A DNA stretch of 64,000 nucleotides from a bacterium (lineage in GTDB: Bacteria; Zhuqueibacterota; Zhuqueibacteria; Residuimicrobiales; Krinioviventaceae): assembly GCA_963674595.2 (NCBI GenBank), contig CAXXFV010000016.1, positions 1 through 64,000 on the forward strand. The letters are read 5' to 3'. A model generated the notes under the pieces. The model saw only the letters and a list, made by a program, of their open reading frames with translations, did not search any database and had not been told where the DNA came from. The translations under genes were made by a program, and so were the position numbers. Every line of letters starts with the position of its first letter. Within the stretch, counting starts at the first letter, position 1. Of this stretch, positions 29,032 to 61,896 are shown piece after piece.

Positions 29032-30315
29032 ATGAAGAATGAATCTGGTTTTTTTGTACGTTCCTATTTTCTGACTATGTACTTGTTTATTATTTTGTTT
29101 TATCAAACAGCCTATTGCGGTGATCCTCCTTTTGGTGCTTTTGAGACACCACTTGATGGTTCGACCGCTAGAGGTGAAGTACAGGTAACAGGTTGGGCTC
29201 TTGATGATGTCGGTGTAGAGTCGGTAAAAATATACTATGGGTTTGAATTGAATTTTATTGGTAATGCTGTTTTTGTCGCAGGTACGCGTCCGGATATTGA
29301 AGTGTCGTATCCAGGGTATCCCAATAATGACTCAGCAGGATGGGGCTATCAATTGTTAACAAACTTTTTGCCCAATGGCGGTAATGGAACATATACGCTG
29401 TATGCCATTGCAAAAGATGTAGAAGGTAATGAGGTGACATTGGGGTCAAAGACAATTATTTGTGATAATGATAATGCTGTGAAACCTTTTGGAACACTGG
29501 AAAAGCCAGAACAGGGAGGTACGGCATCCGGTAATAGTTATTTTGTTTCGGGATGGGCGTTGACGCCTATGCCGAACACGATACCAGCAGACGGCTCTAC
29601 CATTATAATTTATGTTGACGGGGTACCTTTGGGAAATCCTGTTTACAACCAATACAGAGAAGATATCGCAACATTGTTTCCGGGGTACAATAACAGTGAT
29701 GGTGCGATGTTTTATTATTATCTGGATACGACTCAATATTCTGATGGTTTACATACGATTTATGCTAAAGTGACGGACGATGCAGGAAATACGGAAGGGA
29801 TCGGTAGCCGGTATTTTACGATTGACAATGATGATCCGTTACCGGTCTGTCTTTCAAGTTTTCAGGCACACTCCGGAAACGACTGTATTACCCTCGATTG
29901 GAAGACAGAAAGCCAAACTAACAATTTGGGTTTTATCCTGGAACGATCGGATGACCGGCAAATCAGTTGGCGTGAAATTGCACATTATAAATATAATAAT
30001 GCTTTGGCAGGCGAGGGAAATTCCTCATGTTCGTGTGAATATACATTTATTGAAAAAGCCTATCCCAATCCATTTAATCCGGAAACATGTGTTCGTTATC
30101 ATCTTGCACAGGAAAGCCGGGTTAATATATCCGTCTATGATATGCTGGGTCGTTTTATTACAAGCTTGTACGACGGTCCTCAACATGCCGGCAGTTATGA
30201 TGTAATTTGGAAAGGAGAAAATTCCACAGGGGATTTGGTCCCAAGTGGAATATACTTAATTGTTTTGCGGACTGAAAAATGCAGGCAGGCCCAAAAAGTT
30301 ATGCTGGTAAAATAA
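29032..30315 (+). CDS. Secreted protein with two Ig-like repeats and a T9SS/FlgD-like C-terminal domain
   Basis: Signal peptide; repeats PFG..E.P..G......V.GWAL; YPNPFNP...SGIY...KVMLVK C-terminus. Confidence 0.75.
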   Translation: MKNESGFFVRSYFLTMYLFIILFYQTAYCGDPPFGAFETPLDGSTARGEVQVTGWALDDVGVESVKIYYGFELNFIGNAVFVAGTRPDIEVSYPGYPNNDSAGWGYQLLTNFLPNGGNGTYTLYAIAKDVEGNEVTLGSKTIICDNDNAVKPFGTLEKPEQGGTASGNSYFVSGWALTPMPNTIPADGSTIIIYVDGVPLGNPVYNQYREDIATLFPGYNNSDGAMFYYYLDTTQYSDGLHTIYAKVTDDAGNTEGIGSRYFTIDNDDPLPVCLSSFQAHSGNDCITLDWKTESQTNNLGFILERSDDRQISWREIAHYKYNNALAGEGNSSCSCEYTFIEKAYPNPFNPETCVRYHLAQESRVNISVYDMLGRFITSLYDGPQHAGSYDVIWKGENSTGDLVPSGIYLIVLRTEKCRQAQKVMLVK

Positions 30316-33584: not shown

Positions 33585-33607
33585 AAAAAAGCCGGAAAAT
33601 CCGGCTT
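33583..33607 (-). terminator. Terminator of the cytochrome operon
   Basis: AAGCCGGA-AAA-TCCGGCTT preceded by an A-run (T-tail on the minus strand). Confidence 0.7.
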
Positions 33608-34307
33608 AAAAAATATTCCAAATATACGATTTTGCAGGGTCTGTATGACATTCGGTCGTACAGGTCGCATTATCGTGGTCCCAACTTAAAGCTGCATTAA
33701 CTTCAGCATTTGGTGATGAATCGATGTGACCTGCATCTGAAAAATATGTTGGTGTTGAATGGCAGGTTTCACAGTTGATTGTGGTAAGGGCTAAATGGAG
33801 CTGATGTGCCCCAACACCGATGGCGGTCGTTAGAATATTGTTGTTCGTGTCTTCCGGGGGTGCTATGCTTGTGCTGCTGCCGTGACATGTATTACAACTT
33901 TCGGGGCCGCCTGATTTATGGCAGGTATAACAGGATGTAATCGTTCCGGCGCCTTTATAATCTGTTCCATGACAACTCTGACAGTTTTCCATGGACCAGT
34001 TGTGTTGGCGAATATAGTTGCCATGAAAATCCTCGGATGTTTGAACAATCCATTCTTCAACATGGGGAAATGTTACATGGCATGTTATACAGGCGGTTTT
34101 TGCTTCACCTCCGGAAAGGTCTGCTCCGTGACAGCTTGTACAGGAAGAGTAACCCACCGTGGCCACTTTTTTCCCATGAAAATTTTCTGAGGTTTGCTGC
34201 ATCCAGCTTTCCGGGTGTGTTTTAGAGGGAAGCGGATTTTTGTCGTCTGAACATGCAAAAAACAATGTTGAAATAAAGATGCTTGTTATGAACAAATATT
34301 TAAACAT
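33606..34307 (-). CDS. Lipoprotein multiheme cytochrome c (6 CxxCH + 1 CxxxCH)
   Basis: Lipobox FFAC; CTSCH, CITCH, CQSCH, CYTCH, CNTCH, CETCH, CTTECH; GVGAHQLH; start placed at ATG 34307. Confidence 0.88.
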   Translation of the reverse strand: MFKYLFITSIFISTLFFACSDDKNPLPSKTHPESWMQQTSENFHGKKVATVGYSSCTSCHGADLSGGEAKTACITCHVTFPHVEEWIVQTSEDFHGNYIRQHNWSMENCQSCHGTDYKGAGTITSCYTCHKSGGPESCNTCHGSSTSIAPPEDTNNNILTTAIGVGAHQLHLALTTINCETCHSTPTYFSDAGHIDSSPNAEVNAALSWDHDNATCTTECHTDPAKSYIWNIF

Positions 34308-34344
34308 GGTAAACGCCTTTCGGAGTTGACGCCATTTGTTTTGT

Positions 34345-35229
34345 TTAATTAGCTTGGTGACACTGAACGCAAACAAGATCGCCAAAAGATTCGTTATGAC
34401 AACTCATACATTGATCAAGGTCCTGATGGGCCGCTCTTTTATGACCTCCACCCGTGGTTTTATTGGACCAACCGGCGCTGGCATGTGTGCGAGGCATAAC
34501 CATTTGTTCCTGGTGGCAGGTTACACAAAAGGCCAATTCTTCGTGACATGTATAACAATTTTCCTTGTTTCCTTTTGCCTGAATTGCGTGATTGTTGACA
34601 AAGTTAAGAGGATGAACCTTATGGTCCAGATTGTCACCCGTGTGACAGGTCAGGCATTGATTTTCCGTATGACAAACTTTACATTCGTCTTCTGAAGTTT
34701 GGCTGATAATGCCATGGGCCGTTTGCCAGGCAAGATTATGGTCTTTGGGTTTCAGGTTTTCATCTTTTGAATGGCAAGATAGGCAATAATCCACCTGGTC
34801 CATATCATTATGACAGGTAACACAGGTTGCCATTGGCGGTAAATGTTTATCAAAAATATTATTGCTTTGTTCAATATCCTGGTGACATTGTGAACAGGGG
34901 ATCTCTTTTTCGATATGAGCAGCATGTGGGAAAAAGGCAATATAATCGGTTATTCGCGGATAAACAACGGCATTATCCGGGTTTTTATGACATAAACTGC
35001 ATTCGGCATCCTGATCGTGACAGGCATAGCATGTTTCCATTTCCGGCAACAGATTGTCCGTTGGTTTCAGACTGCTGTCTGCTCCCGCATGACAGTCGGA
35101 ACAGGCCGCTCCTACAGATTCAGCATGAAGTTTGTGCGAAAAGATCAGTTCAACCTGTTGCTGCGCATACATTGTTGAAACACCTGTTAAAAGGAACAGT
35201 AGAAATATAGTTAGAGTTTTTAAATTCAT
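34345..35229 (-). CDS. Periplasmic 12-heme cytochrome c (c3/c7-like repeats)
   Basis: Sec-pathway signal peptide; 12 CxxCH motifs; FSHKLH and FPHAAH distal-His motifs. Confidence 0.9.
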   Translation of the reverse strand: MNLKTLTIFLLFLLTGVSTMYAQQQVELIFSHKLHAESVGAACSDCHAGADSSLKPTDNLLPEMETCYACHDQDAECSLCHKNPDNAVVYPRITDYIAFFPHAAHIEKEIPCSQCHQDIEQSNNIFDKHLPPMATCVTCHNDMDQVDYCLSCHSKDENLKPKDHNLAWQTAHGIISQTSEDECKVCHTENQCLTCHTGDNLDHKVHPLNFVNNHAIQAKGNKENCYTCHEELAFCVTCHQEQMVMPRTHASAGWSNKTTGGGHKRAAHQDLDQCMSCHNESFGDLVCVQCHQAN

Positions 35230-35246
35230 TTTTTTGTCCCTCTGTA

Positions 35247-36431
35247 TTACCAGCTAAAGGAAATATGATTCAGAAAACGGGAATCATTATCTTTAAAACG
35301 GTTACTCAACCATTGATATTCAATATCTATCATAAAATGTCGATTCGGGTGCCAGGACAGACGTGCTGCATTTGCCAGCAGGTTGTCGTACTCGTAAATT
35401 TCTTCTGTGCGGTATTTTGAATAATCCAGATTTATTGAGGCAATCAGATCATTCATAACTTCCTGAGAATAATCGAGTACAACGCCTGTTTGGTCTCCGG
35501 CATATCCTGATTCATACAGAAAACCGACACTTGCGTTCATGTGACTGAATGTAAAATATAGTTTGTTGGCATTACCGTCATCAAACTGTACATATTTATA
35601 ATCTGCATTAATAAAAAAGTCTGAAATAAATTCCCAATCGGCGCCGGTGTGATATTGGGTATAAGCTTCCGGGGAAAAAATGGAGTAAAATGAATCGGCA
35701 TATATTTGGGGAAATTGGCTTTTGAAACCGGCACGGAGGGCAATTTGGGGATTTACCGTATACCGGGCATAAGCCAACATTCTGTGTAATTGTTCGTTTT
35801 CAATATCATAATGCGCCTGAATGCGAACCTGAGTACGAGGTAAAAGAGAGTTACTCAGATTTATACCTGCCAGGTGCCAGAAAATTTCATTTTTATTTGC
35901 TTTTTGCAGGTAAAAGGGTTGAATTGTGGTAGAATAAATATTTTTTAAATTTATTAAACCACCAATAATTTGACTGTCGTCGGTCTCATAAACTTTAAAA
36001 GAACGCTGGAAATGGGTTTCAACGCCGCCATATATATGAACGGAGAGGTTTTTAAGTATCCTGCTTTTTAAATAGATACCATCAAGACCGCCTAATACGG
36101 TCCCGGGGTGGCGGAATTGTCTTCCGATGGTTAAATCAATTCTGTTTAATAAATTTTTGACCTCAAGGTTTAGAACATAGGCTTTAAAACGCTCTTCACT
36201 GTTCAGCGACTCCTGAGTATCGGTCAGCCCTCGAAGAGAAGAATTGATTATAATTCGATTGTTCCACGTGCGCAAACTCATTCGGGCGTATTGATAAATC
36301 CGAGTGGTTGATTCGATGTCTTTATAACTGTATATCGAATTTTTTACACTGCCGTGAAAAATTAAATTTGTTGCTTTAACGTTGGTAACAACAAAAAGTG
36401 AAACGAGCAATAAAACAAGAATCTTTTTCAT
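35247..36431 (-). CDS. Outer-membrane beta-barrel (putative porin of a porin-cytochrome conduit)
   Basis: Signal peptide; alternating beta strands; GRQF and LDG motifs; C-terminal ISFSW; flanked by multiheme cytochromes. Confidence 0.72.
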   Translation of the reverse strand: MKKILVLLLVSLFVVTNVKATNLIFHGSVKNSIYSYKDIESTTRIYQYARMSLRTWNNRIIINSSLRGLTDTQESLNSEERFKAYVLNLEVKNLLNRIDLTIGRQFRHPGTVLGGLDGIYLKSRILKNLSVHIYGGVETHFQRSFKVYETDDSQIIGGLINLKNIYSTTIQPFYLQKANKNEIFWHLAGINLSNSLLPRTQVRIQAHYDIENEQLHRMLAYARYTVNPQIALRAGFKSQFPQIYADSFYSIFSPEAYTQYHTGADWEFISDFFINADYKYVQFDDGNANKLYFTFSHMNASVGFLYESGYAGDQTGVVLDYSQEVMNDLIASINLDYSKYRTEEIYEYDNLLANAARLSWHPNRHFMIDIEYQWLSNRFKDNDSRFLNHISFSW

Positions 36432-36470
36432 AATAATTCCCGCGATTTTTTATGTGAACCGCGCTTAAAT

Positions 36471-36496
36471 AGGCAGCCATCTATTGATGACTGCCT
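36471..36496 (-). terminator. Intra-operon hairpin (partial terminator or mRNA stabiliser)
   Basis: AGGCAGCCATC-TATT-GATGACTGCCT after the rhodanese stop, with only a short T tail. Confidence 0.55.
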
Positions 36497-36509
36497 GAAA
36501 AGAGTTTAA

Positions 36510-37514
36510 TTATTTTATAATAATATCCGAATAATCTGCTGCAGGAGGTGTATATTTTGATTTTGTCAAGCTGTTATAGGCAAATCCGTTAACACCATAA
36601 AGTAAACTTTTTGCGTCATAGCCGAGTATTTGCAGATAAGCAGCTATCTGTGCCGATGTTTGACCTGTATAGCAATAGATAACAATGGTTTTATCCGTTG
36701 GTAAATATTTCAGCATGGCATCTTTTTTTAGAGATGTTTTGGGTTCATAACAAAAAGCACCTTCAATATGTCCGGGATTCAGGTACTCGGCTTTTGGCCA
36801 ATAGTTGATAATAAAATAATTGCCGGGATTTGCGAAAACAGTGGCAGCACTGATATTTCCCCATCCGCTGGTTGCCAGAATATCTTTTACCCGTTCTTTA
36901 ATTATGTCTTCGGCTGACGTTTTGCCTGTTGACAAGGTCGGATAAGTTTGTTCAGTGGTCGGTGTTAAATCTGTAGTTTTTAACTGGGAAGCAAATTCAT
37001 CACCGGCAATTTGGTTTATCCACTTGTCTGTGCCGTTAATGCTGTTATCTGCAACAACAGAGCACATGGCAAATAACAGGTTTTGTGCATCATAACCCAG
37101 CATGTTTAAAACGGCTGTTGCCCAGCTTGCTGTTTGCCCGGTATAACAGATATTCAAAATGGTTTTGGTTTTGGGAATTGTACCATCGTTAATTTTGGTA
37201 ACAAGATCGCCGATTGCCATATTAACAGCACCGATAATATGTCCGGATGTATAATCAGCGGCTGATCTGTAATCAATGATATATGGATCATTGCTAGTGT
37301 CACCATCGGTTAAGAGGGTTTTAACATCTGCAATTGAAATGTTTACAGATTTTCCGCTTGTGGAAGTATAACTGCTAAAATATTGATTGCCGACGGATTC
37401 AACGAGATTAAACTCAACTATTTGTTCTTGTGTTTCAGCCGGGTTGTCATCGTCGCTGCAAGCTGTAATAATAATAAAAAGTCCGAGGAAGAGAATTAGA
37501 AACCGTTTTAACAT
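36510..37514 (-). CDS. Tandem-domain rhodanese (sulfurtransferase) lipoprotein
   Basis: Lipobox ITAC; IDYRS..DY..GHI.GA and GHIEGA motifs; two CYTGQT active-site loops. Confidence 0.9.
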   Translation of the reverse strand: MLKRFLILFLGLFIIITACSDDDNPAETQEQIVEFNLVESVGNQYFSSYTSTSGKSVNISIADVKTLLTDGDTSNDPYIIDYRSAADYTSGHIIGAVNMAIGDLVTKINDGTIPKTKTILNICYTGQTASWATAVLNMLGYDAQNLLFAMCSVVADNSINGTDKWINQIAGDEFASQLKTTDLTPTTEQTYPTLSTGKTSAEDIIKERVKDILATSGWGNISAATVFANPGNYFIINYWPKAEYLNPGHIEGAFCYEPKTSLKKDAMLKYLPTDKTIVIYCYTGQTSAQIAAYLQILGYDAKSLLYGVNGFAYNSLTKSKYTPPAADYSDIIIK

Positions 37515-37554
37515 GTTTGATCTCCTTACAAAAAAGGTTAATATATTTATTCAA

Positions 37555-38847
37555 TTAGTTTTTCGTTAATACGATTTGTTTATTAGCGTCGATTTCATTG
37601 GGATCAAGATCGTCGCTAGTTAAATAATAATCTGAATTATGACATTTGGAACCACATGATCCGGCATCATTGCGTGTGTCTGTTTGCGGCGTCCATCGTT
37701 GAATATTATGTGGCGTAGCATATTTCCATGTTGTTTCGGAAGAATAGTTGGGTAAATCTGCGATACCCCAACTGGCATAGGTGTCGCGTGAAATCGGTAT
37801 ATGACGAACGGTTACGATTTTATAGTTACGATCTGCTGACCGGATCGGATTTCGGGCGATTTTAAAATCCATATAAGAACTTCCGGTAATACCTTGCCCG
37901 CCGGTGTGGCAGGAGTTACAATTTTTGTATGATTGTGAATGGCAAACCTGACAGGAAAGTTCGCCCCAATGCATATTATGATAATTGTTTGCGTTTTCTT
38001 TGTCCTGATGACAGTCTTCACACCGGACCATGTCCTGATCTTCGTATCTGTGTTCCGCCGCTACAGAGCTGCTGTGCATTGCATCTTCTGAATGGCAAAA
38101 TGTGCAGCGTTTAACATTCGGAATCCAATGGACATCAGGGTTAATGCCTGCATTTTCGCCAAAATATTCTGCTCCGACACGGCTGCCGTGACATGCAGTA
38201 CAGTTATTCCGCATATCAGGTTCTTTTTGAAAAGTGTGTCCGTTTAAAAAACCACCATCCACGGAAACCGGACGTGAAACATGACATTGTCCGCAGGAGG
38301 CATGGCACTTTCCACATTCCGCATCAAATTTGTCAACAAGGTCCGGATTTGTTGAAATATCATATCCCAGTCGTTTTTCAATTCTTTTGTAATACCCTTT
38401 GACGTTGTAATGTAAACTGTTTTGGTGTTTGGTCGTAACATCCGCGTGGCAACCTGCACAAAATTGTTCTGACGACGAACTTGGATAGGCGACAAGTCCT
38501 TTATGTGCAACATCTTTAGTTTCTGCTTTTGAATCACCTAAATGACAGGCTGTACAGCCCATTTCCCCATGTGTTGTGCTGAAAAAAGTTTGGTTTACAA
38601 GAACCATTTGCCAGGCCTCTAACTGAGACACGGATCCGCCTCAGCCTTCGCCTGCATCGCCCTCAACATCCGGGAGTGGATCTGCAACCTCTTTTAATAA
38701 AGCAGAATTTGTATGACAACCTATACAACCGTCACTACTTGCCATTTGAACCGTTTTTTGTTCAGCGGGGTATTTTTTTGTACATTGAATAGCCGCCAAG
38801 CAAATCAGCAAAGCAGTGAAAAGATAAGCTAAAAAACGATTTTGCAC
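37555..38847 (-). CDS. Predicted selenocysteine-containing multiheme cytochrome c lipoprotein (430 aa, Sec69, 10 CxxCH + 1 CxxxCH)
   Basis: GTG start with SD GGAG; in-frame GAA GGC TGA GGC GGA TCC GTG joins the 68-aa and 358-aa ORFs; SECIS-like hairpin directly downstream; only the upstream part has a signal peptide. Confidence 0.8.
38611..38633 (-). promoter_or_regulatory. Bacterial SECIS-like hairpin
   Basis: CCGUGUCUC-AGUUA-GAGGCCUGG; apical loop begins 16 nt after the UGA and has G at loop position 2. Confidence 0.7.
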
Positions 38848-38884
38848 GCTATACTCCAGATTATGGTTGATTTAGATTTGAAGC

Positions 38885-39352
38885 TTAATTTAGTGCCATG
38901 TTTCGGCTTTTAGTGTTTTCCTGAATGTATGTTTTGATTAATTGAATGATTGTTTGTGTAACAATATTGTCCGGTTCTATCTGTAAGGCATTTTCAAAAT
39001 ATATCAGAGATTTTTTAATGTCACAAAACAACCATAGCATTCCCATCATGTTGTGAAAATCCAGAGAATTTTTATTTTCATTGGGTCTTTTTTCTGCATT
39101 ATATACGAGCTCCGCACAAGGGCAGTCATCGTCAACAGCATTGGTGTTGATGATAAAAGAAATATCTTCTTTAATAAGAGGAACAAACAGTTCCAGAGCT
39201 TGGTCGATTTGAAATGTTTGTGTATAACTGACAACAAGCTTGCGACGAACTTGTTTATTTTTGGGATCATGTTGCAGTATTTCTTCAAGCTCTTTAACGG
39301 CGCCGGTATAGTTACGCGATAAAAAGTATTGGTTTCCAAGCATTTCAGACAT
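38885..39352 (-). CDS. TPR-repeat protein with DDDCPC motif
   Basis: LGNQYF..RNY..A...LE......P and ALQIEPDN TPR-like helices. Confidence 0.7.
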   Translation of the reverse strand: MSEMLGNQYFLSRNYTGAVKELEEILQHDPKNKQVRRKLVVSYTQTFQIDQALELFVPLIKEDISFIINTNAVDDDCPCAELVYNAEKRPNENKNSLDFHNMMGMLWLFCDIKKSLIYFENALQIEPDNIVTQTIIQLIKTYIQENTKSRNMALN

Positions 39353-39379: not shown

Positions 39380-39395
39380 TACAAATACCCTGCCA
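39380..39395 (-). promoter_or_regulatory. Probable sigma-54 promoter of the TPR/cytochrome operon
   Basis: Minus strand TGGCAG-GGTAT-TTGTA (GG-N10-GT, variant -12), adjacent to an enhancer-binding-protein gene. Confidence 0.5.
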
Positions 39396-39433: not shown

Positions 39434-39512
39434 TATTTTGAAACATTTCGTTTCAAAATATTTATAACTGCTTGTTAAATATTAATATATGTATTTTGAA
39501 ACAATATGTTTC
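39434..39512. promoter_or_regulatory. Two GAAACA-N3-YGTTTC inverted repeats (candidate activator sites)
   Basis: TATTTTGAAACATTTCGTTTCAAAATA at 39434 and TATTTTGAAACAATATGTTTC at 39492. Confidence 0.55.
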
Positions 39513-39526
39513 CTGAAACATCCTCG

Positions 39527-40846
39527 TTAAACAAGACCGTGTGTTTTCATACGACGCCAAAGCGTTGTTCTGCCGATTCCCAGTTCAGCGGCTGCTTTGC
39601 CTCGGTTCCAGTGGTGCTTTTCCAGCGTTTTGGCAATTTCATTATCCTGCTTTTTGATGTTCCTGGGTGTTACAGGCTTGATATTATCAAAACTAATACG
39701 AATATGAGCGGGGAGTTTTGTTTTTTCTATAACATCGTTATTTTTTGTTCTGGCAAAGGCATATTCGATGGTATTTTCCAATTCGCGAACATTTCCCGGC
39801 CAGTTGTAACGTAATAATATATCCATTGAATCGTCATCAATTTCATGAATATTCTTGTTATAAAGAAGTGAAAATTTATGGATAAAATGTTTGACCAAAT
39901 AGGGTATATCATCCAACCGTTCTCGCAATGGAGGAACATGAATGGGTATTACATTAAGTCGATAATAAAGGTCTTGGCGGAATTGACCGGATTCAAGCGC
40001 TTGTTCCAGGTTTTTATTGGTTGCGGCTATCACCCGAACATCGACATTGCGCGTCGTCGATTCTCCGATGCGCTCAAATGTACCTTCCTGCAAAATTCGA
40101 AGTAACTGCAACTGGGTTTGCTGCGGCATTTCTGCAACTTCATCCAGAAAAATTGTTCCTTTGTCTGCCAGCTCAAAGCGACCGACCCTGTCTTTAATTG
40201 ACCCTGTAAACGCTCCTTTTACATGGCCGAAAAGTTCACTGGCGAGTAACTGGTCCGGGAAAATAGAACAGTTTACTTTGATATACTTTTCATTTTTGCG
40301 ATAGGATGTCGTCTGAATAGCATTGGCAATCATCTCTTTTCCTGTCCCGGATTCACCCTGAATCAGAACAGCCGCGTCTGCATCGGCAATTTCATCAATC
40401 AATTCAAAAATTTCTATCATGGATTTATGATAACCGACAATACCATGATATTGTGTCTCTTTAATTAATTTCTTTTTGATGACCTCTACTTCCGAAATAT
40501 CCCGGAAAGAGATGATTCCGCCATAGGGTTCGTTATCACTATTATACAGAACCGACGAATTCATCTTGACATATATTATTTCGCCTTTTTCATTAACAAG
40601 CTTTGATTCGATGTCATATTTAGTTTGTCCCGATTCCAATACATGGGCTATTGGGCATTTGCCGGAACAAAGTCCGGTTTTACAAACATATTTACATATT
40701 TTACCAATAACGTTTTCGCGGTTTATCCCCAGTATGTCTTCTGCAGCACGGTTGATAAATGTAATTTTAAAATTTTTATCAACTGTAAAAACGCCTTCTC
40801 CGATTGAATCCAAAATGTCTCTTGTTTGTGGTTGTCGAATTGGCAA
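39527..40846 (-). CDS. PAS-domain sigma-54-dependent transcriptional activator (NtrC/Fis family)
   Basis: PAS domain; GESGTGKE, SELFGHVKGAFTGS, FLDEV, RVIAATN, DLYYRLNV, WPGNVREL; Fis-type HTH. Confidence 0.95.
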   Translation of the reverse strand: MPIRQPQTRDILDSIGEGVFTVDKNFKITFINRAAEDILGINRENVIGKICKYVCKTGLCSGKCPIAHVLESGQTKYDIESKLVNEKGEIIYVKMNSSVLYNSDNEPYGGIISFRDISEVEVIKKKLIKETQYHGIVGYHKSMIEIFELIDEIADADAAVLIQGESGTGKEMIANAIQTTSYRKNEKYIKVNCSIFPDQLLASELFGHVKGAFTGSIKDRVGRFELADKGTIFLDEVAEMPQQTQLQLLRILQEGTFERIGESTTRNVDVRVIAATNKNLEQALESGQFRQDLYYRLNVIPIHVPPLRERLDDIPYLVKHFIHKFSLLYNKNIHEIDDDSMDILLRYNWPGNVRELENTIEYAFARTKNNDVIEKTKLPAHIRISFDNIKPVTPRNIKKQDNEIAKTLEKHHWNRGKAAAELGIGRTTLWRRMKTHGLV

Positions 40847-47483: not shown

Positions 47484-49799
47484 CTATTTAGATAAAACCA
47501 GTTTTTTGACATCGATATAGGCTGTTCCGGTATTGTTAAGGGGCAAGGTTTTTAGCCGATAAAAATAGACTCCGGATGGCATTTGCATTCCCTGGCTGTT
47601 ACAACCGTCCCATATCATGCTGTACATACCGTCTTGCAGATTTTGATGGACCAGGTCAATAACACGTTCACCTAGTATATTGAAAATTGTCAGTTCAGCA
47701 TACATTGGTTTTGGCAATTGAAATGAAATCGTGGTTTTTGGATTAAATGGATTGGGATAGGCCGAATGTAAACAAAAATTCATAGGTTGCAGGTTTGTAA
47801 GGTTTGCCACTTTTACATTATGATCATATGGCAGGGCTCCCATATCTGATACAGATCCATCATCATCAGTTATGGCAGGATCGCCCGTATCAATACATGG
47901 AGAATTCTGGGTCAGATGATAGTCAAATGGAGTGCCTCCAACGTAAAGCGGGTCCTGTTCAATTCTTCCGGTGCCGGGCAGGGCTGTCCATGTATTATCC
48001 GTTGGTCCAAAGTTTGTTCCGTTCCCAAAATAATCGTTATATTCAAATGAGCAAAAATCGGTCGAAACATCTTCAGTCTTAAAAATGCCGCTCTCCTGAT
48101 TGCTGGAAAATATATTATTGTAGATAAAAGTCCCATAAGCCTGATGCAGTGCAATACCGTATAAATTATTGTTGTCAATTGTATTGTTATAGATATCACA
48201 AGTATTATTGTTGTTCAGGTAAATTCCAATGTCACAGTTACGAATAATACAATGATGAACTCTTACGCTGCCAAATTTTGATAGAACGCCGTATTCAGGA
48301 GGAGAACCCTCTGCAGAGCCTGCGACAGTTATATCATGTATCTCTGCATCGAATGCCATCTCTATAATATACGGACTGTCATTATTCGTAATGATAACAC
48401 TGTCCGGTCCGGCTTTGCTATAAATTGTTACGCCGGGCTGCATGTCTATGCAATCGTTATAAATACCGGGTTCTACTTTAATTTTGTCTCCATAGTCACA
48501 CCCTGTCATGGCCTGGCTTATGGAAATCGGGCTGTCTGGTGAAATTGTAAACACTTTGGTGTAAAAATAATAAGAATAAACAGACCCAGAGTTGTTACCA
48601 TTGTCATCATCCTGACGTGAACTGATCATGATTGTGCCCCTGTTCATCGTGACCGGTAATCCAAACCAGTCACCATCGTCAATGTCCACAGGCACAATGA
48701 CTCTTTCGAGGTCCCATTGTGTACCGTTATGACGATATAAATATGCTTTACCTGCATTTTCCCCCCATTCATCATTTCCGTAAGCACCAATAATAAGCCG
48801 GTTCCCGACGATATCTAAGCTTGCACCAAAGTAATCGCTTGGTACATCATCAGGTTCCGGTGATATAATTTTTTGTTCTTCGATCCAATCGTTTTCCTGC
48901 CATTTATAAATATAAACCGATCCGGAACTGGTGCCTTTATCATCATCATAAGAGGCGCCAACAGCCAGGCGGTCTCCGTGCAGGGCTACCTGATGGAACC
49001 TGTCTCCAGCGGTCCCATCGTTTGCAATTATCTTTTTTTGCTGTACCCATTCTAAATCTACCTCTTGAAAAAGATAGACGGCACCGGCATCGACACCGTT
49101 TTCATTGTCATCGAAACGGGAACCTATTGCGATTGTATAGCTGTCAATATCGATTGATACACCAAACCAGTCACCTTCTGCCGCATCATCCGGTAACAGC
49201 TTTGTCACCTGGGTCCAGCTTTCATCATCCATTCGTTCATAAACATAGGCCGAACCAGTACGTGTTCCAAAATCATCGTCAAAAAAAGCGCCCACAACAG
49301 CCGTGTTGCCGTTATCCCTGATTGCTACGGTGATGCCAAATCGATTGTCTTCCCCTGCATCATCTGCTGTGAGTTTGGCTGTTTCCACCCAGGTATCGCC
49401 ATCACGTTTAAAGATATAGGCGGAACCGGATTTTTCACCTGCATCATCATCCCAGGGAGAACCAATGATGATATATTTATCACTAACCCCTACACTGTAA
49501 CCAAAATTATCCTCCTCTGCTCCATCGCTGGCAACTACCTTTTGTTGGAAAACCCATCCGGTATTATCTCTTTTATAAATATAAGCCGCACCCGCGTTTA
49601 TACCGTTTTCATTGTCATCTTCATTTGCACCCACTGCCGAATAATTAAAGCACAAATCGTTGCTGCGGCCAAACAAGTCGGTAGAGTCACCATCGAAAGC
49701 TGTGAGTTTTGTTTCAATCTGAGCGAATGACGGTTTAACCAAAAGAACAATTAGAAACAATTTACTGAAAAGCCGGAAATATCCAAATGATGTTTTCAT
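47484..49799 (-). CDS. Secreted FG-GAP repeat plus beta-helix protein with a T9SS/FlgD-like C-terminal domain
   Basis: About 7 repeats of D.FG.SV......VGA..DD..G..SGSAY; parallel beta-helix; SPCIDTGDP; YPNPFNP...SGVYFYRL; start placed at ATG 49799. Confidence 0.85.
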   Translation of the reverse strand: MKTSFGYFRLFSKLFLIVLLVKPSFAQIETKLTAFDGDSTDLFGRSNDLCFNYSAVGANEDDNENGINAGAAYIYKRDNTGWVFQQKVVASDGAEEDNFGYSVGVSDKYIIIGSPWDDDAGEKSGSAYIFKRDGDTWVETAKLTADDAGEDNRFGITVAIRDNGNTAVVGAFFDDDFGTRTGSAYVYERMDDESWTQVTKLLPDDAAEGDWFGVSIDIDSYTIAIGSRFDDNENGVDAGAVYLFQEVDLEWVQQKKIIANDGTAGDRFHQVALHGDRLAVGASYDDDKGTSSGSVYIYKWQENDWIEEQKIISPEPDDVPSDYFGASLDIVGNRLIIGAYGNDEWGENAGKAYLYRHNGTQWDLERVIVPVDIDDGDWFGLPVTMNRGTIMISSRQDDDNGNNSGSVYSYYFYTKVFTISPDSPISISQAMTGCDYGDKIKVEPGIYNDCIDMQPGVTIYSKAGPDSVIITNNDSPYIIEMAFDAEIHDITVAGSAEGSPPEYGVLSKFGSVRVHHCIIRNCDIGIYLNNNNTCDIYNNTIDNNNLYGIALHQAYGTFIYNNIFSSNQESGIFKTEDVSTDFCSFEYNDYFGNGTNFGPTDNTWTALPGTGRIEQDPLYVGGTPFDYHLTQNSPCIDTGDPAITDDDGSVSDMGALPYDHNVKVANLTNLQPMNFCLHSAYPNPFNPKTTISFQLPKPMYAELTIFNILGERVIDLVHQNLQDGMYSMIWDGCNSQGMQMPSGVYFYRLKTLPLNNTGTAYIDVKKLVLSK

Positions 49800-50002
49800 T
49801 TTACTTTCTCCTAAATTGTTTTGATTGTACAAGTTTTTGATGATTTTGTGGTATAATATTGAATTTAACAACATTATTAAGGACAATTGTTAAAAAAGTC
49901 ACATAAATGCTATTTTTATCGAATTGAAATCTGTTAAAACCAAATCCGTGGAATTATTAGCGATGTTTCCCTTTTGTATTTTTGATAATTAGCTTGGTTG
50001 CC

Positions 50003-51790: not shown

Positions 51791-54424
51791 CTATTTAATA
51801 AATATCATCTTGCGTGTAAAAGTGTTACCCGGTGAATCCATGCGATAGAGATATGTTCCGGCGCTGACAGTTAGTCCATAATTGTCCCGGCCGTCCCACA
51901 CAAGTTTGTGATAACCGGTACCAAATTTTCCGCTTGCCAGTGTTCTGACATGTACACCACGAATATCATAAATATTAATGGTTACTTCTGCGGCTGTTGG
52001 TACGGCAAACTCTATAACCGTTGTTGGGTTAAATGGATTCGGATAGTTTTGCGACAATGCAAAAGCTTTTGGAACTGCTCCGTTCTGAGAATCTACAGAT
52101 GTTACTGCAATGGATGTTTCATCTGAAAGCTCACTTTGGTTACCGGAAAAGTCAAAAGCCGAAATCTTGTAGTAATAGGTCTGGCTTTGATCTGTTTCTG
52201 CGTCAAAATAGGATGTTCCTGTGAGTGTAGCAATTCTGTTTTCATCGGTGGCGGCAAAGCCCGGGGCCGTTCCGCGATAGACTGCAAAATAATTAAAGTC
52301 TTCATCAACAGGATCATTCCATGAAAGTTTAACATCTGTTCCACCGACAAGTTCAGCAACAAGGCCGTCCGGCGCCATTGGTACAAGGTTATCAACAGAA
52401 TAACCGGCTCCCGGTTGTGATTCATGTCTGGTACCGCCTTGAGTTACAGCAACAACCATGAAATTTGTTAAGGCAGTTCCGCTTGCTGTAGAGTCGTAAA
52501 CTGTCGGTACGACCAAAGCATAACGGTTGCTGCCGTCTGCTGTTGTTTCTCCGACGTCTGTCCAGTCAGCCTCACCATCCTGGCGTTTTACTTTATAAAC
52601 AGCTACCGGGTCAATGGCAATACCGTCATCTACAAATTTATCCCAAATAATGCGAACTTTTTTACCCTGATCATTTGGTACATCTTCAATGGCAACAATT
52701 TCACCATCAATAGCATTGTTTTTCAGCGCTTGAATGCTTGTTTTGAGAAGAGCTACAGTAAATGCGGGATTATGAATGCCATAACTATGATCATAATAAA
52801 CCATTCGATGGTTAAAACCTGCTTTTAATTCTGTTTTGGTCCAGGTTTCATCTACATCGGCATGGGGGTCTGCATCCGGTAACAATCCACTGAGGATGTC
52901 CATCAAACCATGAACTTCTTCCTGAAGACCTTCCGCTACACCATCTCCATCATGGTCGGCATTGCCGTTGGCATAGTATTTCTTTTCACTAAAAGAATCA
53001 CCAACGTCACCGTGGCAGTCTTTACAGGAAGCCACATTATCAACGCTATCCAGGCTGACCATTGAAAAGGAATGCATTCCGGCAGATGTTAAATTACCAT
53101 CAGCATCATGTTCACCATGAGAACCATCTTCATACATATGACAGGTCGCACAGGCATTTCCTGTTGCTTCCAGGTGAGGCGATGAGGGTAGTGTTTTTCC
53201 AAATGTTGCAACATTTGTTGCCAGCAGCATATCAGCTTGCGGTGCATAATGAGGACCGTAATGGCCGGATGGTGCATTGGTGTACGTTGCCGCATTTTGC
53301 CGGCTTTGGTGACAGTTCATACATATAGCTCCGGTTCCGGCGCCGCTGACTTGCTGGTTGTTGGATAAAGTTGCGGTCATTGTTCGAAGTTGAAAAGTAT
53401 TTTCTGCCGAGTGCGGATCGTGGCAAACAGCACATGTGATGTTAATATGAGATTGAGTTGTAATTGTTTCACCTTCAACAAATTGAACAAACTGAGCGCC
53501 GTTATGACAACCATTGCAGGTGGTACGCGTACCGCCTGGATAGGTTGGAATGCGTGAATGTGGGGATTCTTTCCATTGTGCCGGATATACATGGTAATGA
53601 TTATCATCATGACAAACAGCACAGGCTTCTTCAGCCAAAGTTGCGACCATTTTATTGTCCGCTGTGCGGCCATAGTGGGCGCTACCGGGACCGTGACATG
53701 ATTCACACTGAATTCGTGCCAGTTTCATTGAATTTGGATAGGTTGCTACAAGATTGTCCCATGTTTCGGCAGCGATGGTAGCCGGGAATACCCATGCAGA
53801 ATCTACACCGGCTATTCGTTGTGTACGGTCATCAAATCCCTGGTTGTCGGCAAATTCATCGTACCCGGTTGAATGACATTTAACACAGGATAACGAATAA
53901 TGGCCGCCGGGAGTTGTTAGTTGAGTTTCCATTATGGAATAGTGTCCGGTTTGTTCCCATTCTGCGGCTTTTTCCTGGTGACACATGCCACAAGCCCCAT
54001 CTTCAATGCCAACATAGGTGCCGGCATTAATTGTTAAAGAATCTGATAATTCGCCATCTGTAAATACGATGACATACGTTCCAACAAGGTCCGGGGCAAA
54101 TACAGCGACCTGGGTTGAATCATCCAGGTTTACTATGGGATCAATAGCCGACTCTGACCAGGATGGTGCTGATGCGATAGTCCATGTTGGTGCTATCATG
54201 GCACCAGCAGTAATCTGTGCTTTAAAATACATTTGTGTTTCTATACCTACATTTAAAAGCGCATTGTAAGGACGATCAAAAACACCAACATATTCCGGAT
54301 TGCCCACTGTATCCGCCAAAGATTCTGCAGTTGATATACCTACAGGCCCAAAAGATAAAGTTTGTCCAAAAGATATTGTACTTGCTAATAATAATGCAAA
54401 AATAACCAATATGACCTTTTTCAT
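51791..54424 (-). CDS. Secreted 9-heme cytochrome c with FN3 and T9SS/FlgD-like C-terminal domains
   Basis: Signal peptide; 9 CxxCH; DHSYGIHNP motif; FN3 (KLSW...YYYKISAFD); QNYPNPFNP...GTYLYRM...KMIFIK; start placed at ATG 54424 after AGGAGGT. Confidence 0.88.
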   Translation of the reverse strand: MKKVILVIFALLLASTISFGQTLSFGPVGISTAESLADTVGNPEYVGVFDRPYNALLNVGIETQMYFKAQITAGAMIAPTWTIASAPSWSESAIDPIVNLDDSTQVAVFAPDLVGTYVIVFTDGELSDSLTINAGTYVGIEDGACGMCHQEKAAEWEQTGHYSIMETQLTTPGGHYSLSCVKCHSTGYDEFADNQGFDDRTQRIAGVDSAWVFPATIAAETWDNLVATYPNSMKLARIQCESCHGPGSAHYGRTADNKMVATLAEEACAVCHDDNHYHVYPAQWKESPHSRIPTYPGGTRTTCNGCHNGAQFVQFVEGETITTQSHINITCAVCHDPHSAENTFQLRTMTATLSNNQQVSGAGTGAICMNCHQSRQNAATYTNAPSGHYGPHYAPQADMLLATNVATFGKTLPSSPHLEATGNACATCHMYEDGSHGEHDADGNLTSAGMHSFSMVSLDSVDNVASCKDCHGDVGDSFSEKKYYANGNADHDGDGVAEGLQEEVHGLMDILSGLLPDADPHADVDETWTKTELKAGFNHRMVYYDHSYGIHNPAFTVALLKTSIQALKNNAIDGEIVAIEDVPNDQGKKVRIIWDKFVDDGIAIDPVAVYKVKRQDGEADWTDVGETTADGSNRYALVVPTVYDSTASGTALTNFMVVAVTQGGTRHESQPGAGYSVDNLVPMAPDGLVAELVGGTDVKLSWNDPVDEDFNYFAVYRGTAPGFAATDENRIATLTGTSYFDAETDQSQTYYYKISAFDFSGNQSELSDETSIAVTSVDSQNGAVPKAFALSQNYPNPFNPTTVIEFAVPTAAEVTINIYDIRGVHVRTLASGKFGTGYHKLVWDGRDNYGLTVSAGTYLYRMDSPGNTFTRKMIFIK

Positions 54425-54515
54425 GGTATCCATACCTCCTCGGTTAAATGATACGTTGATTAGGTAAAAATATGTGAAATCATCACCTCCTTGTCATTCT
54501 TTCAGTTTATTTAAA

Positions 54516-55362: not shown

Positions 55363-56871
55363 ATGAAGCTCAGATTACCGCATTCTTTTTATAATCCAAT
55401 TTCTTACGCAGGAGCGGCCATTGCCGTTATTGCCATATTCATGTTTGTGTTTTTATATGTTCTTTCGTCCCTCACGGCATTCGACAAAGCCTATGTGGGA
55501 ATTGTTATCTTTATTGCTATTCCTGCATTTATCATTCTCGGTCTTTTACTCATTCCATTTGGAATGATCTTGAAAATACGCAAACAAAAAAAACAAGGCG
55601 AAGCAGAGGGTGATGACTTTCCGATTTTAAACTTGAATCTAAAAAGACATCGTAATGCTACATTTATTTTTACAATCGGAACTACGCTATTTTTGTTTTT
55701 ATCTGCTTTGGGAAGTTATGAAGCCTATCATTATACGGAATCCGTCAAGTTTTGCGGGACATTATGCCACGACTTGATGATTCCCGAATATACAGCCTAC
55801 CAGGAATCACCCCATGCCCGTGTAACCTGTGCGGAATGTCATGTGGGAGAGGGGGCCAATTGGTATGTGAAATCCAAATTAAGCGGATTGTATCAGGTAT
55901 ATGCGGCCCTTGCCAATGTCTATCCACGACCCATTCCGACGCCGGTTAAGAATTTACGTCCGGCCCGAGAAACTTGTGAAGAATGCCACTGGCCGCAAAA
56001 GGTATATGGTAAACAACAACGCAAAGAAATTTATTATCTACCTGATGAAGAAAACACCCGCTGGGAAATTGATATGCTGATGAATACTGGCGGCGGCAAT
56101 CCGGCGTTGGGACAAAGTTCAGGTATTCACTGGCATATTAATCAGAATATTAAAATAGAATATTTTACTAATGACGAGAAAAGGTCATCAATTAATCGTG
56201 TTGTTATGACGGATTTGGCAAGCGGTGAAAAAAAAGTCTATGATAATGAAATGGAACCTTTTGATGAGTCCGGTGAAACAGTTTATGAGAATAGAACAAT
56301 GGATTGTATTGATTGCCATAATCGTCCCAGTCATGTTTATCGTGACCCTAATAGATTTGTAAATGTTGCTATTGCTTCGGGTAATATCAGCTCCGAAATT
56401 CCGATGATAAAGCAGGCGGCTATTGAAGCTTGTATGGAAGACTATGAATCAACTCCGGATGCTTTTACGGGAATAGAAAAGCATGTTCTTGCGTTTTATG
56501 AAGACAATTATCCAGATATTGTCAATGAAAAAAAGGAATTGCTGGAAAAATCAATTGCCGGTATTCAGGATGCCTATTCAAAAAATATATTTCCGGAAAT
56601 GAATGTAAAATGGGAATTTTATCCGGACCATATCGGACACATGACCAGCATTGGTTGTTTTCGCTGTCATGATGGTATGCACAGCACGCAGGATGGTCAG
56701 ATTATTTCCCATGGATGTAATGACTGTCATCTCATTTCCAGTCAGGGTCAAGCCGGGCAGATTGTGAGCGCCAGTGCAGACCAGTCTCTTGAATTTAAGC
56801 ATCCCATCGATATTGGCGAAGAATGGAAGTCGACAGGTTGTTATGAATGTCATGTCGTGCCGCCGCTATAG
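55363..56871 (+). CDS. NapC/NirT-family membrane-anchored multiheme cytochrome (7 heme motifs)
   Basis: 3 N-terminal TM helices; TES..FCGTLCH..M.PEY..Y..SPH..V.CAECH; CEECH, CIDCH, CFRCH, CNDCH, CYECH. Confidence 0.88.
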   Translation: MKLRLPHSFYNPISYAGAAIAVIAIFMFVFLYVLSSLTAFDKAYVGIVIFIAIPAFIILGLLLIPFGMILKIRKQKKQGEAEGDDFPILNLNLKRHRNATFIFTIGTTLFLFLSALGSYEAYHYTESVKFCGTLCHDLMIPEYTAYQESPHARVTCAECHVGEGANWYVKSKLSGLYQVYAALANVYPRPIPTPVKNLRPARETCEECHWPQKVYGKQQRKEIYYLPDEENTRWEIDMLMNTGGGNPALGQSSGIHWHINQNIKIEYFTNDEKRSSINRVVMTDLASGEKKVYDNEMEPFDESGETVYENRTMDCIDCHNRPSHVYRDPNRFVNVAIASGNISSEIPMIKQAAIEACMEDYESTPDAFTGIEKHVLAFYEDNYPDIVNEKKELLEKSIAGIQDAYSKNIFPEMNVKWEFYPDHIGHMTSIGCFRCHDGMHSTQDGQIISHGCNDCHLISSQGQAGQIVSASADQSLEFKHPIDIGEEWKSTGCYECHVVPPL

Positions 56872-56968
56872 GATTTGTTTACAAGAATCGTTTTCTGTTG
56901 CGCCTTTTTTAGAGATTGATTATATTTTTTGACAATGTTTATCGAATGCATTTATTCAGAACGGGATT

Positions 56969-58915: not shown

Positions 58916-59340
58916 TGATGGAAATTTTTGTTTTAATTCTTGTTTTAGGGGTGGTGTTATATGTTATAGCACCTTTATATTCTAAAAAAGAGGTCGTTGT
59001 TGCTCAATCGGCCACAAATAAAAATGTATATACTGATTTTTTACATCAAAAATCCTTTGTTCTGCAAACCATAAACGACCTGGAGTTTGATTATCAAACC
59101 GGTAAATTAACGGAACAGGACCGTGATGAACTGGTCAAAGAACAACAGGAAACATTGGCAACAATAGAAACAAAAATGAAAAAGGTTTCCGGAATTGATT
59201 TGACCAATTTGGAACAACAATTGGAAAAAGAAATTTCAGATGTTAAAGAAAAGCTAAAACCAAAACTGCAATGTTCCTCATGTGGTTTTATTTGTCATCC
59301 CGGAGATAAATTTTGCGCTAACTGTGGTATGAAACTTTAG
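58915..59340 (+). CDS. Membrane-anchored zinc-ribbon protein (CcmI-N-like)
   Basis: N-terminal TM; DLEFDYQTGKL; C-terminal CSSC...FCANCG; start overlaps the ccmF stop. Confidence 0.7.
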   Translation: MMEIFVLILVLGVVLYVIAPLYSKKEVVVAQSATNKNVYTDFLHQKSFVLQTINDLEFDYQTGKLTEQDRDELVKEQQETLATIETKMKKVSGIDLTNLEQQLEKEISDVKEKLKPKLQCSSCGFICHPGDKFCANCGMKL

Positions 59341-59348
59341 AACGTACT

Positions 59349-61881: not shown

Positions 61882-61896
61882 GGGAGCACATGGTTT

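Follow-up and report, generated by a model that had tools for sequence, protein, structure and literature searches.

Gene content and regulation of the operon

A 64,000-nucleotide stretch of DNA from a bacterium of the Zhuqueibacterota lineage (positions 1 to 64,000 of contig CAXXFV010000016.1, GenBank assembly GCA_963674595.2; the whole stretch is here called the window) carries a cluster of six genes that combines a multiheme cytochrome read as a selenoprotein and a double-rhodanese lipoprotein with an outer-membrane β-barrel and two further multiheme cytochromes. The six open reading frames (ORFs) are co-directional, lie on the minus strand at 33606-39352 and are present once in the 6.6-Mb, 37-contig genome. 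A preliminary description, made from the sequence alone, had listed the same ORFs, and their coordinates stood when re-checked on the sequence. First in the operon is a gene for a 155-residue TPR protein without signal peptide (38885-39352; TPR_19 and TPR_2 over the Pfam cut-off), followed by the 11-heme-motif selenocytochrome (37555-38847; a 430-residue lipoprotein with ten CXXCH motifs and one CX3CH), a 334-residue lipoprotein with two rhodanese domains by Pfam (36510-37514), a 394-residue outer-membrane β-barrel with a plain signal peptide and 22 strands in its AlphaFold2 model (35247-36431), a 294-residue periplasmic cytochrome with 12 CXXCH motifs and only about 23 residues per heme (34345-35229), and a last lipoprotein cytochrome with seven motifs, six CXXCH and one CX3CH (33606-34307 from its ATG, 233 residues; an alternative longer ORF from a TTG reaches 34385). 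In gene order, the spacers measure 37, 40, 78, 17 and 37 nt. All 30 heme motifs announced for the three cytochromes were recovered (11 + 12 + 7), 28 being canonical CXXCH and two CX3CH, and Pfam gives the operon cytochromes generic cytochrome c7/c3 matches. The lipoboxes of the three lipoproteins, read from the sequence, are AIQC, ITAC and FFAC; the barrel and the 12-heme protein carry a cleavable signal peptide without lipobox.

The terminator that had been proposed to close the operon was confirmed as an intrinsic-terminator-like hairpin of 8 pairs with a T run (33589-33607, minus strand), the best such site of the region, located directly after the last stop codon. It also faces a convergent peptidase gene ending at 33584. 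The 78-nt spacer that separates the rhodanese gene from the barrel gene contains a 10-bp hairpin, read by eye (36471-36496, minus strand; AGGCAGTCAT, loop CAATAG, ATGGCTGCCT); it has one G-U pair and no T run and might serve, between the two modules, for transcript processing or attenuation.

Relatives of the cytochrome were collected by a pattern scan of one genome per species, which gave more than 582 stretches, the best 80 of which were fetched and form the set of loci counted below. Their lineage labels comprise KSB1, Calditrichota, Gemmatimonadota, Thermodesulfobacteriota, Krumholzibacteriota, Eisenbacteria, Phycisphaerae and many Chloroflexota. Named homologues come mostly from candidate division KSB1 and Calditrichota, names that fit the earlier placement of the organism in the probable Fibrobacterota-Chlorobiota-Bacteroidota (FCB) group. 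A tblastn match to the TPR protein was found upstream of the cytochrome gene in 11 of the 80 loci.

Upstream of the operon, and in the same orientation, lies a gene for a PAS-domain sigma-54 enhancer-binding protein (39527-40846, minus strand) composed of a PAS_9 domain, an AAA+ Sigma54_activat domain (PF00158, 227.9 bits) and a Fis-type helix-turn-helix (HTH_8). Homologues of this activator are encoded upstream in the same orientation in L017, L018, L020, L023, L024, L036, L042, L047, L050, L053 and other loci, and the corresponding neighbor cluster was recovered in 14 selenocytochrome-centred loci. It is thus a probable regulator of the operon. A sigma-54-like -24/-12 element, TGGCAGGGTATTTGT (GG-N10-GT; 39381-39395, minus strand), starts 43 nt ahead of the ATG of the TPR gene, and in L018, L023 and L024 the pattern recurs about 30-46 nt before the TPR gene against a background of 0.046 per kb; this site is likely a sigma-54 promoter. 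The 174-nt spacer between activator and operon further contains three copies of TGTTTCAAAATA (39434-39503), two direct and one inverted with one mismatch, meaning that three of the four window matches to this sequence (at most one mismatch; window-wide expectation 2.03) fall within 70 nt. We infer that these copies are candidate enhancer sites. Judged by the short spacers, the sigma-54-like element, the adjacent PAS activator and the single terminator, the six genes are best read as one operon. Among the 21 runs listed, none is an RNA run that carries this stretch.

The selenocytochrome and its rhodanese partner

The cytochrome ORF is open only when the in-frame TGA at 38641-38643 (minus strand, codon 69) is read through. 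An aligned TGA is present in 74 of the 80 loci, where it forms the center of a GEG-U-GG motif (U, selenocysteine, Sec); three loci have a Cys codon instead and three encode Arg, Met or Gly. Protein sequence is conserved on both sides of the TGA. Starting 12 nt after the UGA, a hairpin resembling a selenocysteine insertion sequence (SECIS) was identified (38613-38631, minus strand; 8-bp stem, GUU-type apical loop). Across 75 aligned sequences, 85.0% of the cells of this helix are paired compared with 41.7-50.0% for slid partner strands; both sides are changed in 47 cells, and the covariation score was reached by none of 500 shuffles. The covarying bases fall in the codons of residues +5 and +9, so the protein sequence appears to bend to keep the helix. 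In the single-sequence fold of the UGA region the energy is no different from that of shuffles (z = -0.32), and the hairpin is visible only in the alignment of 75 sequences. The genome encodes the machinery for Sec insertion, all components scoring over their curated cut-offs (SelA 574 bits, SelB 354, SelD 389, tRNA-Sec 65.9). The selD gene (contig C4:13190-14113) itself holds one in-frame TGA, and SelD of this genome is probably a selenoprotein as well. The conserved TGA, the covarying hairpin and the Sec machinery bear out the selenocytochrome proposed in the preliminary description, and on these sequence grounds we take the TGA to be a real selenocysteine codon.

No account of the GEG-U-GG cytochrome family as a selenoprotein was found in the literature searched. 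In the main text of a 2026 selenoproteome review, the cytochrome entries found are ExtKL, the GSU2204 family and the OTR family, and the main text of BSepDB has no occurrence of the word cytochrome. A search of 1.84 billion proteins gives 217 representative clusters of the family at E ≤ 1e-30. Many of these representatives start at profile positions 74-79, and 117 of the 120 best database matches start downstream of the Sec codon, spanning no more than 83% of the query and leaving out its N-terminal part. The selenocytochrome is therefore invisible to most annotation because gene callers cut the protein at the UGA. A potential example is found in Dethiobacter alkaliphilus, where DealDRAFT_1917/1918 are described as a 10-heme protein without signal peptide, formerly misnamed thiosulfate sulfurtransferase, beside a rhodanese-domain protein; the 10-heme protein is significantly more abundant in thiosulfate- than in ferrihydrite-grown cells (PMC10376724). 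Selenocysteine has no occurrence in that paper, and no outer-membrane barrel is stated for the cluster. Four database matches of the window cytochrome carry the same JGI sulfurtransferase name. By its description, the D. alkaliphilus protein would fit a truncated gene call of this family, which likewise shows up as a 10-heme ORF without leader, and serves as a lead.

AlphaFold2 models the selenocytochrome with a pLDDT of 85.1 and a pTM of 0.79. The sole clear structural match, obtained with VIA-align, is the octaheme tetrathionate reductase (OTR) of Shewanella oneidensis (1sp3), which covers model residues 90-430 with 245 residues aligned at a root mean square deviation of 4.1 Å and a Z of 8.9, a value only slightly higher than those often seen between unrelated models; the second-best match has Z 4.0. 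The same structure is the best match in a PDB sequence-profile search (E 0.0026, five heme motifs aligned), which otherwise returned weak matches only, none of them named MccSep, a selenocytochrome whose structure possibly lies outside the searched set. The active-site heme of OTR is Lys-ligated. In the selenocytochrome family, seven invariant and three nearly invariant His residues outside the heme motifs are available for 11 hemes, so that one heme may be without a distal His ligand. Outside the heme motifs, Cys22, the site of lipid attachment, is the single invariant Cys (47 aligned sequences), and homologues carry lipoprotein signals throughout. Compared with OTR, the window protein has three more heme motifs, an N-terminal lipid anchor, an extra heme and the Sec loop. 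It does not match the OTR model TIGR04315 (cut-off 375 bits) even at E ≤ 1. A true OTR gene without stop codon is located elsewhere in the genome (C23:1685-2932, 579.9 bits to TIGR04315). Based on this modeling, the selenocytochrome reads as an OTR-like catalytic core extended by a lipid anchor, one more heme and a Sec loop, and is best interpreted as an enzyme rather than a wire; both proteins act, or would act, on sulfur-sulfur bonds.

Some relatives place the cytochrome in other architectures. P0376 is a 776-residue relative with three N-terminal CWB2 cell-wall-binding domains and thus anchored, by prediction, to a Gram-positive cell wall; together with the lipoprotein signals of the homologues, this supports an extracytoplasmic, surface-facing position in other lineages. 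In P0270, P0287 and P0250 (667-774 residues) the cytochrome is fused to further multiheme modules, and two of the three have MtrC/MtrF domain II/IV matches over the cut-off.

The closest functional precedent for a heme-selenium enzyme is MccSep (ExtKL), described as a pentaheme selenoprotein and the polysulfide reductase of Geobacter needed for respiration of elemental sulfur (S0), with its Sec on a mobile loop (PMC13510729). The Sec lies in a D-G-U-P loop of a C-terminal Ig-like domain, a Cys ligates a heme, and the family is reported mainly in Desulfobacterota and Nitrospirota (PMC13510729, 2026). The window selenocytochrome is not a member of this family. It has no match to the MccSep model NF040886 (cut-off 250 bits) at E ≤ 0.1, and in a genome-wide search none was found on contig C16. 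When 47 members of the window family were aligned by hhalign to six true MccSep genes, drawn from a phylum sample in which 22 of 201 genomes exceed the NF040886 cut-off, the probability was 20.7% over 31 columns around one heme motif. One of these six genes encodes an N-terminus nearly identical to the published peptide of the Geobacter enzyme. True members show IPDG-U-PTPNR, compared with GEG-U-GG at residue 69 of 430 in the window protein, which further differs from MccSep in having 11 rather than 5 heme motifs, in being lipid-anchored rather than soluble and in having no invariant free Cys for a heme. None of five genomes holding the window cytochrome family has an MccSep over the cut-off. 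The best match in the source genome (C27:86328-87299; 64.6 bits to NF040886, below the cut-off) has no in-frame stop and is possibly a distant Cys-type relative of MccSep.

The gene following the selenocytochrome encodes a double rhodanese (PF00581, 75.6 bits versus a cut-off of 22.2, in two stretches). Its two catalytic cysteines, C123 and C281, each lie in a C-Y-T-G-Q/H-T loop and are invariant in 52 of 52 sequences. Among 70 informative loci (at least 1.3 kb on both sides of the cytochrome), 50 encode a double rhodanese at most 600 nt from the cytochrome on the same strand, 31 downstream and 19 upstream. Natural fusions were identified in both orders: L076/P0242 has a lipoprotein leader followed by both rhodanese domains and the complete cytochrome, with one TGA, while in P0300 and P0278 the cytochrome comes first and two rhodanese domains are C-terminal. 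Fusion in both orders is strong evidence that rhodanese and selenocytochrome act together, and the proposed coupling of the two is upheld by conserved neighborhood and, in some relatives, by a shared polypeptide. The selenocytochrome-rhodanese pair is spread over many phyla.

The barrel module and its linkage to the selenocytochrome

Whether 35247-36431 folds as a barrel had been regarded beforehand as decisive for the idea of an outer-membrane conduit. AlphaFold2 yields a plug-less barrel of 22 strands as assigned by DSSP (mean pLDDT 86.8, pTM 0.76). Among the Foldseek matches listed, the usher pores FimD and PapC, which have 24 strands, give the highest TM-scores, and others are large substrate porins (Occ/OpdK). 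The barrel has no Pfam or NCBIfam match over the cut-off and none of its 30 nearest Atlas clusters carries a common Pfam family. A barrel-centred set of 56 metagenome loci was assembled, 46 of which have room downstream. In 45 of these 46, the 12-heme gene follows the barrel gene within 500 nt, with or without the selenocytochrome module, and one or more lipoprotein cytochromes are usually next. The 7-heme protein has a conserved mature start, C-S-x-D/E-K-N-P-L-P-S.

Complex prediction covered one pair, the barrel and the 12-heme protein. The median score was 0.41 (runs 0.61, 0.41 and 0.09) compared with 0.00 for three controls; the partner pLDDT was 66-75, runs agreed in at least 5% of contacts and no interface was printed. 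In calibration, the mark was reached by 116 of 157 solved complexes and by 2 of 215 mismatched pairs, and at scores of at most 0.60 the passes comprise 18 solved complexes and both mismatches. The main evidence for a putative porin-cytochrome conduit is the gene layout, the plug-less 22-strand barrel model and the near-obligate adjacency of barrel and 12-heme genes, to which the complex prediction is a minor addition.

This arrangement of a plug-less barrel beside a periplasmic 12-heme cytochrome and a lipoprotein cytochrome agrees with the MtrCAB/Pcc-type layout recognized earlier. As in MtrCAB of Shewanella and OmaB-OmbB-OmcB of Geobacter, the genes for periplasmic cytochrome, plug-less barrel and lipoprotein cytochrome stand side by side. 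MtrB has 26 strands and is roughly twice as long as the window barrel, which has 22 strands and about 373 mature residues; the window gene order is barrel, periplasmic cytochrome, lipoprotein. Neither the barrel nor either cytochrome has a Pfam or NCBIfam match over the cut-off to the MtrA/MtrB/MtrC or OmaB/OmbB/OmcB families, and the MtrC/MtrF domain II/IV model reaches 27.7 and 23.8 bits against a cut-off of 30.

The operon had also been likened to Geobacter extHIJKL, and this analogy holds for composition and fails for homology. Both the window operon and the Geobacter ExtHIJKL(MNOPQS) cluster combine a rhodanese-family lipoprotein, a barrel, a multiheme selenocytochrome and a 12-heme cytochrome, both have a Gly-flanked Sec on a loop, and both are treated as candidate outer-membrane conduits. 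In a Geobacter-type ext region (L170) surrounding a true MccSep gene, ExtH, ExtI, ExtJ, ExtKL and ExtM were assigned by order and length against PMC5877670. ExtH and the window rhodanese gave a BLASTP E of 0.016 over 36 residues, confined to the active-site loop; ExtI and the window barrel gave an hhalign probability of 0.8%; and ExtM shares 31 columns with the window 12-heme protein. As for the selenocytochrome, homology is thus not found for rhodanese, barrel and 12-heme protein. The window operon further includes a lipoprotein cytochrome, whereas extHIJKL is described as lacking an outer-membrane cytochrome (Otero et al., PMC6148476).

The two modules of the operon are separable. Barrel and 12-heme genes are joined to the selenocytochrome in several gene orders (L053, L065, L031, L021 and L025), an indication that the linkage arose repeatedly or was maintained. 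The cytochrome is encoded in nine of the 18 barrel-centred loci that extend 3 kb or more upstream, in seven of them together with the rhodanese. In most lineages, the cytochrome-rhodanese pair is found without a barrel. No barrel module was found in the 28 loci labelled as Chloroflexota lineages. Elsewhere, the cytochrome-rhodanese pair and the barrel-12-heme pair are each kept, and the full combination occurs in a minority of loci. The architecture of a conduit combined with a sulfur or selenium unit stands, while the statement that the conduit ends in this unit is, given the separable modules, an inference.

Proposed sulfur reduction and its alternatives

A potential link to the quinone pool emerged from clustering the neighbors of the 80 cytochrome loci, which revealed an NrfC-like 4Fe-4S protein in 17 loci and, in 8, a protein of the NrfD ('polysulphide reductase') type. 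The NrfC-like gene starts 10-40 nt after the cytochrome gene in eleven loci with Dehalococcoidia or related labels, and L025 encodes in one row an FeS protein, NrfD fused to a triheme (c7) domain, the cytochrome, the rhodanese, the barrel and the 12-heme protein. The source genome has its own NrfC-like and NrfD-triheme pair (C1:20074-22440; 64% and 51% identity to the pair of L025), a few kb from selB (C1:26898-28808) and beside sensor and regulator genes. Psr, Nrf and other quinol-fed periplasmic reductases show this arrangement of FeS protein plus NrfD. In Wolinella succinogenes, the periplasmic rhodanese-like carrier Sud passes polysulfide sulfur to PsrABC, a quinol-fed enzyme composed of an NrfD-type membrane anchor, a 4Fe-4S subunit and a molybdopterin catalytic subunit. 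The rhodanese and NrfD/4Fe-4S layout found beside the window cytochrome family in other lineages resembles Sud/PsrABC, with the differences that the catalytic subunit would be based on heme and selenium and that the quinol module lies outside the window operon. By analogy, the heme-selenium protein would stand in place of the molybdopterin subunit in the NrfC/NrfD layout. In loci labelled as Dehalococcoidia and kin (L054, L057, L058, L062, L063, L067, L076, L077 and L091), CcmF-/CcmE-like maturation genes are found just upstream of the rhodanese-selenocytochrome pair and a metal-sensitive repressor of the Trns_repr_metal family downstream.

The window itself encodes another candidate quinol dehydrogenase, a 502-residue protein with a NapC/NirT N-terminal domain (55363-56868, plus strand). 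It begins a region rich in cytochrome-related genes (55363-62580, plus strand), in which it is followed by CcmF-like, ABC ATPase, CcmB and CcmC-like maturation genes. On the minus strand at 51794-54433 lies a gene for an 880-residue protein that matches cytochrome c7/c3 models and ends in an FlgD_ig-type domain; it may be a secreted or surface multiheme cytochrome. FlgD_ig-type C-terminal domains are presumably of the kind seen on secreted FCB-group proteins, that is, an FCB-type secretion tail. Two more window genes (29032-30315, plus strand; 47487-49886, minus strand) combine Ig-like or FG-GAP/β-helix domains with a C-terminal FlgD_ig-type domain.

We propose that the operon encodes a sigma-54-controlled heme-selenium reductase of sulfur compounds joined to an outer-membrane conduit, a reading that we consider, as a whole, about evenly balanced between right and wrong. 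Its first module would consist of the lipid-anchored 11-heme selenoenzyme and the lipid-anchored two-site rhodanese, located in the periplasm or on the surface. The rhodanese would bind sulfane sulfur (or selenium) as a persulfide and the selenolate of Sec69, on its glycine-flanked and probably mobile loop, would attack the chalcogen-chalcogen bond; the heme chain would then reduce the Se-S intermediate and sulfide would be released. The substrate would likely be polysulfide/S0, thiosulfate or tetrathionate; selenite might be reduced on the side. In the second module, the 22-strand barrel would sheathe the 12-heme cytochrome, with the 7-heme lipoprotein on the outer side, forming a porin-cytochrome conduit that belongs to a family still without a name. 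Menaquinol would supply the electrons via a quinol dehydrogenase encoded outside the operon, for which the NrfC-like/NrfD-triheme pair on contig C1 and the NapC/NirT-like protein of the window are candidates. The operon would probably allow sulfur compounds to be respired without molybdenum, at the cell surface or outside it.

Several observations weigh against this reading. The -12 part of the promoter-like element reads GT, compared with GC in the sigma-54 consensus, which has GG at -24 and GC at -12. The Arg, Met or Gly at the Sec position of 3 of the 80 homologues means that Sec is not indispensable to every member. The Sec loop is modeled at low confidence (residues 61-70, mean pLDDT 55) and AlphaFold2 places no hemes; as to the relationship with OTR, Z-values near 8 can arise without kinship, and a Foldseek search of the cytochrome model against the PDB returned no match at E ≤ 0.001, with 1sp3 at E 0.52. 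An adjacent rhodanese is missing in 20 of the 70 informative loci. Support from complex prediction is weak, and at scores of at most 0.60 a pass is wrong in most cases if the pairing was not already likely. Finally, barrel and 12-heme genes accompany only 16 of the 80 cytochrome-centred loci, or 10 of the 46 flanked by 5 kb or more on each side, and 9 of the 18 barrel-centred loci with sufficient upstream sequence have neither cytochrome nor rhodanese (two of the nine are identical DNA).

Because the modules are separable, their co-location need not mean electron transfer in series, and the likeliest alternative is that of two parallel, co-regulated modules, a periplasmic reductase of soluble sulfur species, like MccSep, and a general conduit to minerals (Fe(III)/Mn(IV) or S0 particles), which would share a periplasmic electron pool without transfer between them. 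We regard it as a possible, though rather doubtful, arrangement. It would agree with the periplasmic location of MccSep as determined by fractionation (PMC13510729), which cautions against assuming a surface location for the window enzyme, and with the basic mature start of the selenocytochrome, C-T-K-K, unlike the C-S-D-D of the rhodanese and the 7-heme protein. A rule by which C-S-D-D starts would be a Bacteroidota-type surface-export signal was considered and rejected, as it comes from Bacteroidota rather than from this lineage and as the residues after the Cys vary among homologues. The recurrence of the joined modules in several gene orders suggests, on the other hand, selection for linkage. 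In the Chloroflexota-labelled loci, moreover, the selenocytochrome-rhodanese pair is lipid-anchored outside the sole membrane and lies beside NrfC-like genes; the pair can therefore be an outermost redox unit.

The direction of electron flow in the proposed reductase is not fixed by the sequence, and multiheme sulfur enzymes of this kind act near reversibility. It is conceivable, if unlikely, that the system runs in reverse, with sulfide, polysulfide or thiosulfate being oxidized and electrons leaving via the conduit, or with electrons entering from an extracellular donor. Sulfide oxidation coupled to iron-oxide respiration via porin-cytochrome complexes has been described (PMC12545173) and the MccSep authors liken its mechanism to the reverse of TsdA/SoxAX (PMC13510729). 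The NrfD/NrfC partners argue for reduction, their Psr-like layout being typical of quinol-fed reductases, though such modules also run in reverse. The sole physiological hint, the increase of the D. alkaliphilus protein, a probable family member by its description, under thiosulfate reduction, points the same way (PMC10376724).

It is less likely still that the barrel is a channel for polysulfide or oxyanions instead of a cytochrome sheath. ExtI has been discussed as a possible selenite/tellurite channel (PMC5877670), and the Foldseek matches listed for the window barrel include substrate-specific porins, namely Occ/OpdK and AlgE. A plug-less barrel of 22 strands and about 373 mature residues would however be an unusually wide open pore, the near-invariable 12-heme gene behind it (45 of 46 loci) suggests a cytochrome partner, ExtI itself shows no similarity to the barrel by hhalign, and the complex prediction with the 12-heme protein, weak as its support is, stands against controls at zero.

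In sediment and subsurface environments, sulfur species far exceed selenium, and the cytochrome family is spread across many sediment and subsurface lineages. Least probable, and in our view remote, is the idea that selenite or tellurite is the physiological substrate, respired or detoxified with the rhodanese carrying selenium and the conduit depositing elemental Se0/Te0 outside: deletion of extI in Geobacter impairs selenite and tellurite reduction (PMC5877670, whose reference list also cites work on selenium-substituted rhodanese) and MccSep does reduce selenite, but it prefers polysulfide, with a fivefold lower K0.5 and a sevenfold higher Vmax/K0.5 (PMC13510729).

It was not until 2026 that the long-sought polysulfide reductase of Geobacter was identified as a multiheme selenoprotein (PMC13510729). 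Judged by sequence comparison, the window apparently holds a second multiheme selenocytochrome family, independent of MccSep and equipped with the same kind of partners. A more far-reaching version of the proposed sulfur reductase, which we put forward tentatively and consider more apt to be wrong than right, is that the GEG-U-GG cytochrome and its rhodanese form a second, independently evolved heme-selenium sulfur reductase positioned at the outermost cell face. It would be fed by NrfCD in single-membrane bacteria and through the 22-strand conduit in KSB1/Calditrichota-like bacteria, would amount to a complete molybdenum-free pathway for insoluble S0/polysulfide outside the cell and would use Sec as a swinging arm to collect sulfane sulfur from the rhodanese persulfide. 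If the proposed function holds, heme-selenium sulfur reduction arose at least twice and would be far more widespread in sediments and the subsurface than surveys of Psr and Dsr markers show, and sulfur respiration in these organisms would be made dependent on selenium supply. The operon would also provide a compact, testable outer-membrane conduit whose family is covered by no Pfam or NCBIfam model.

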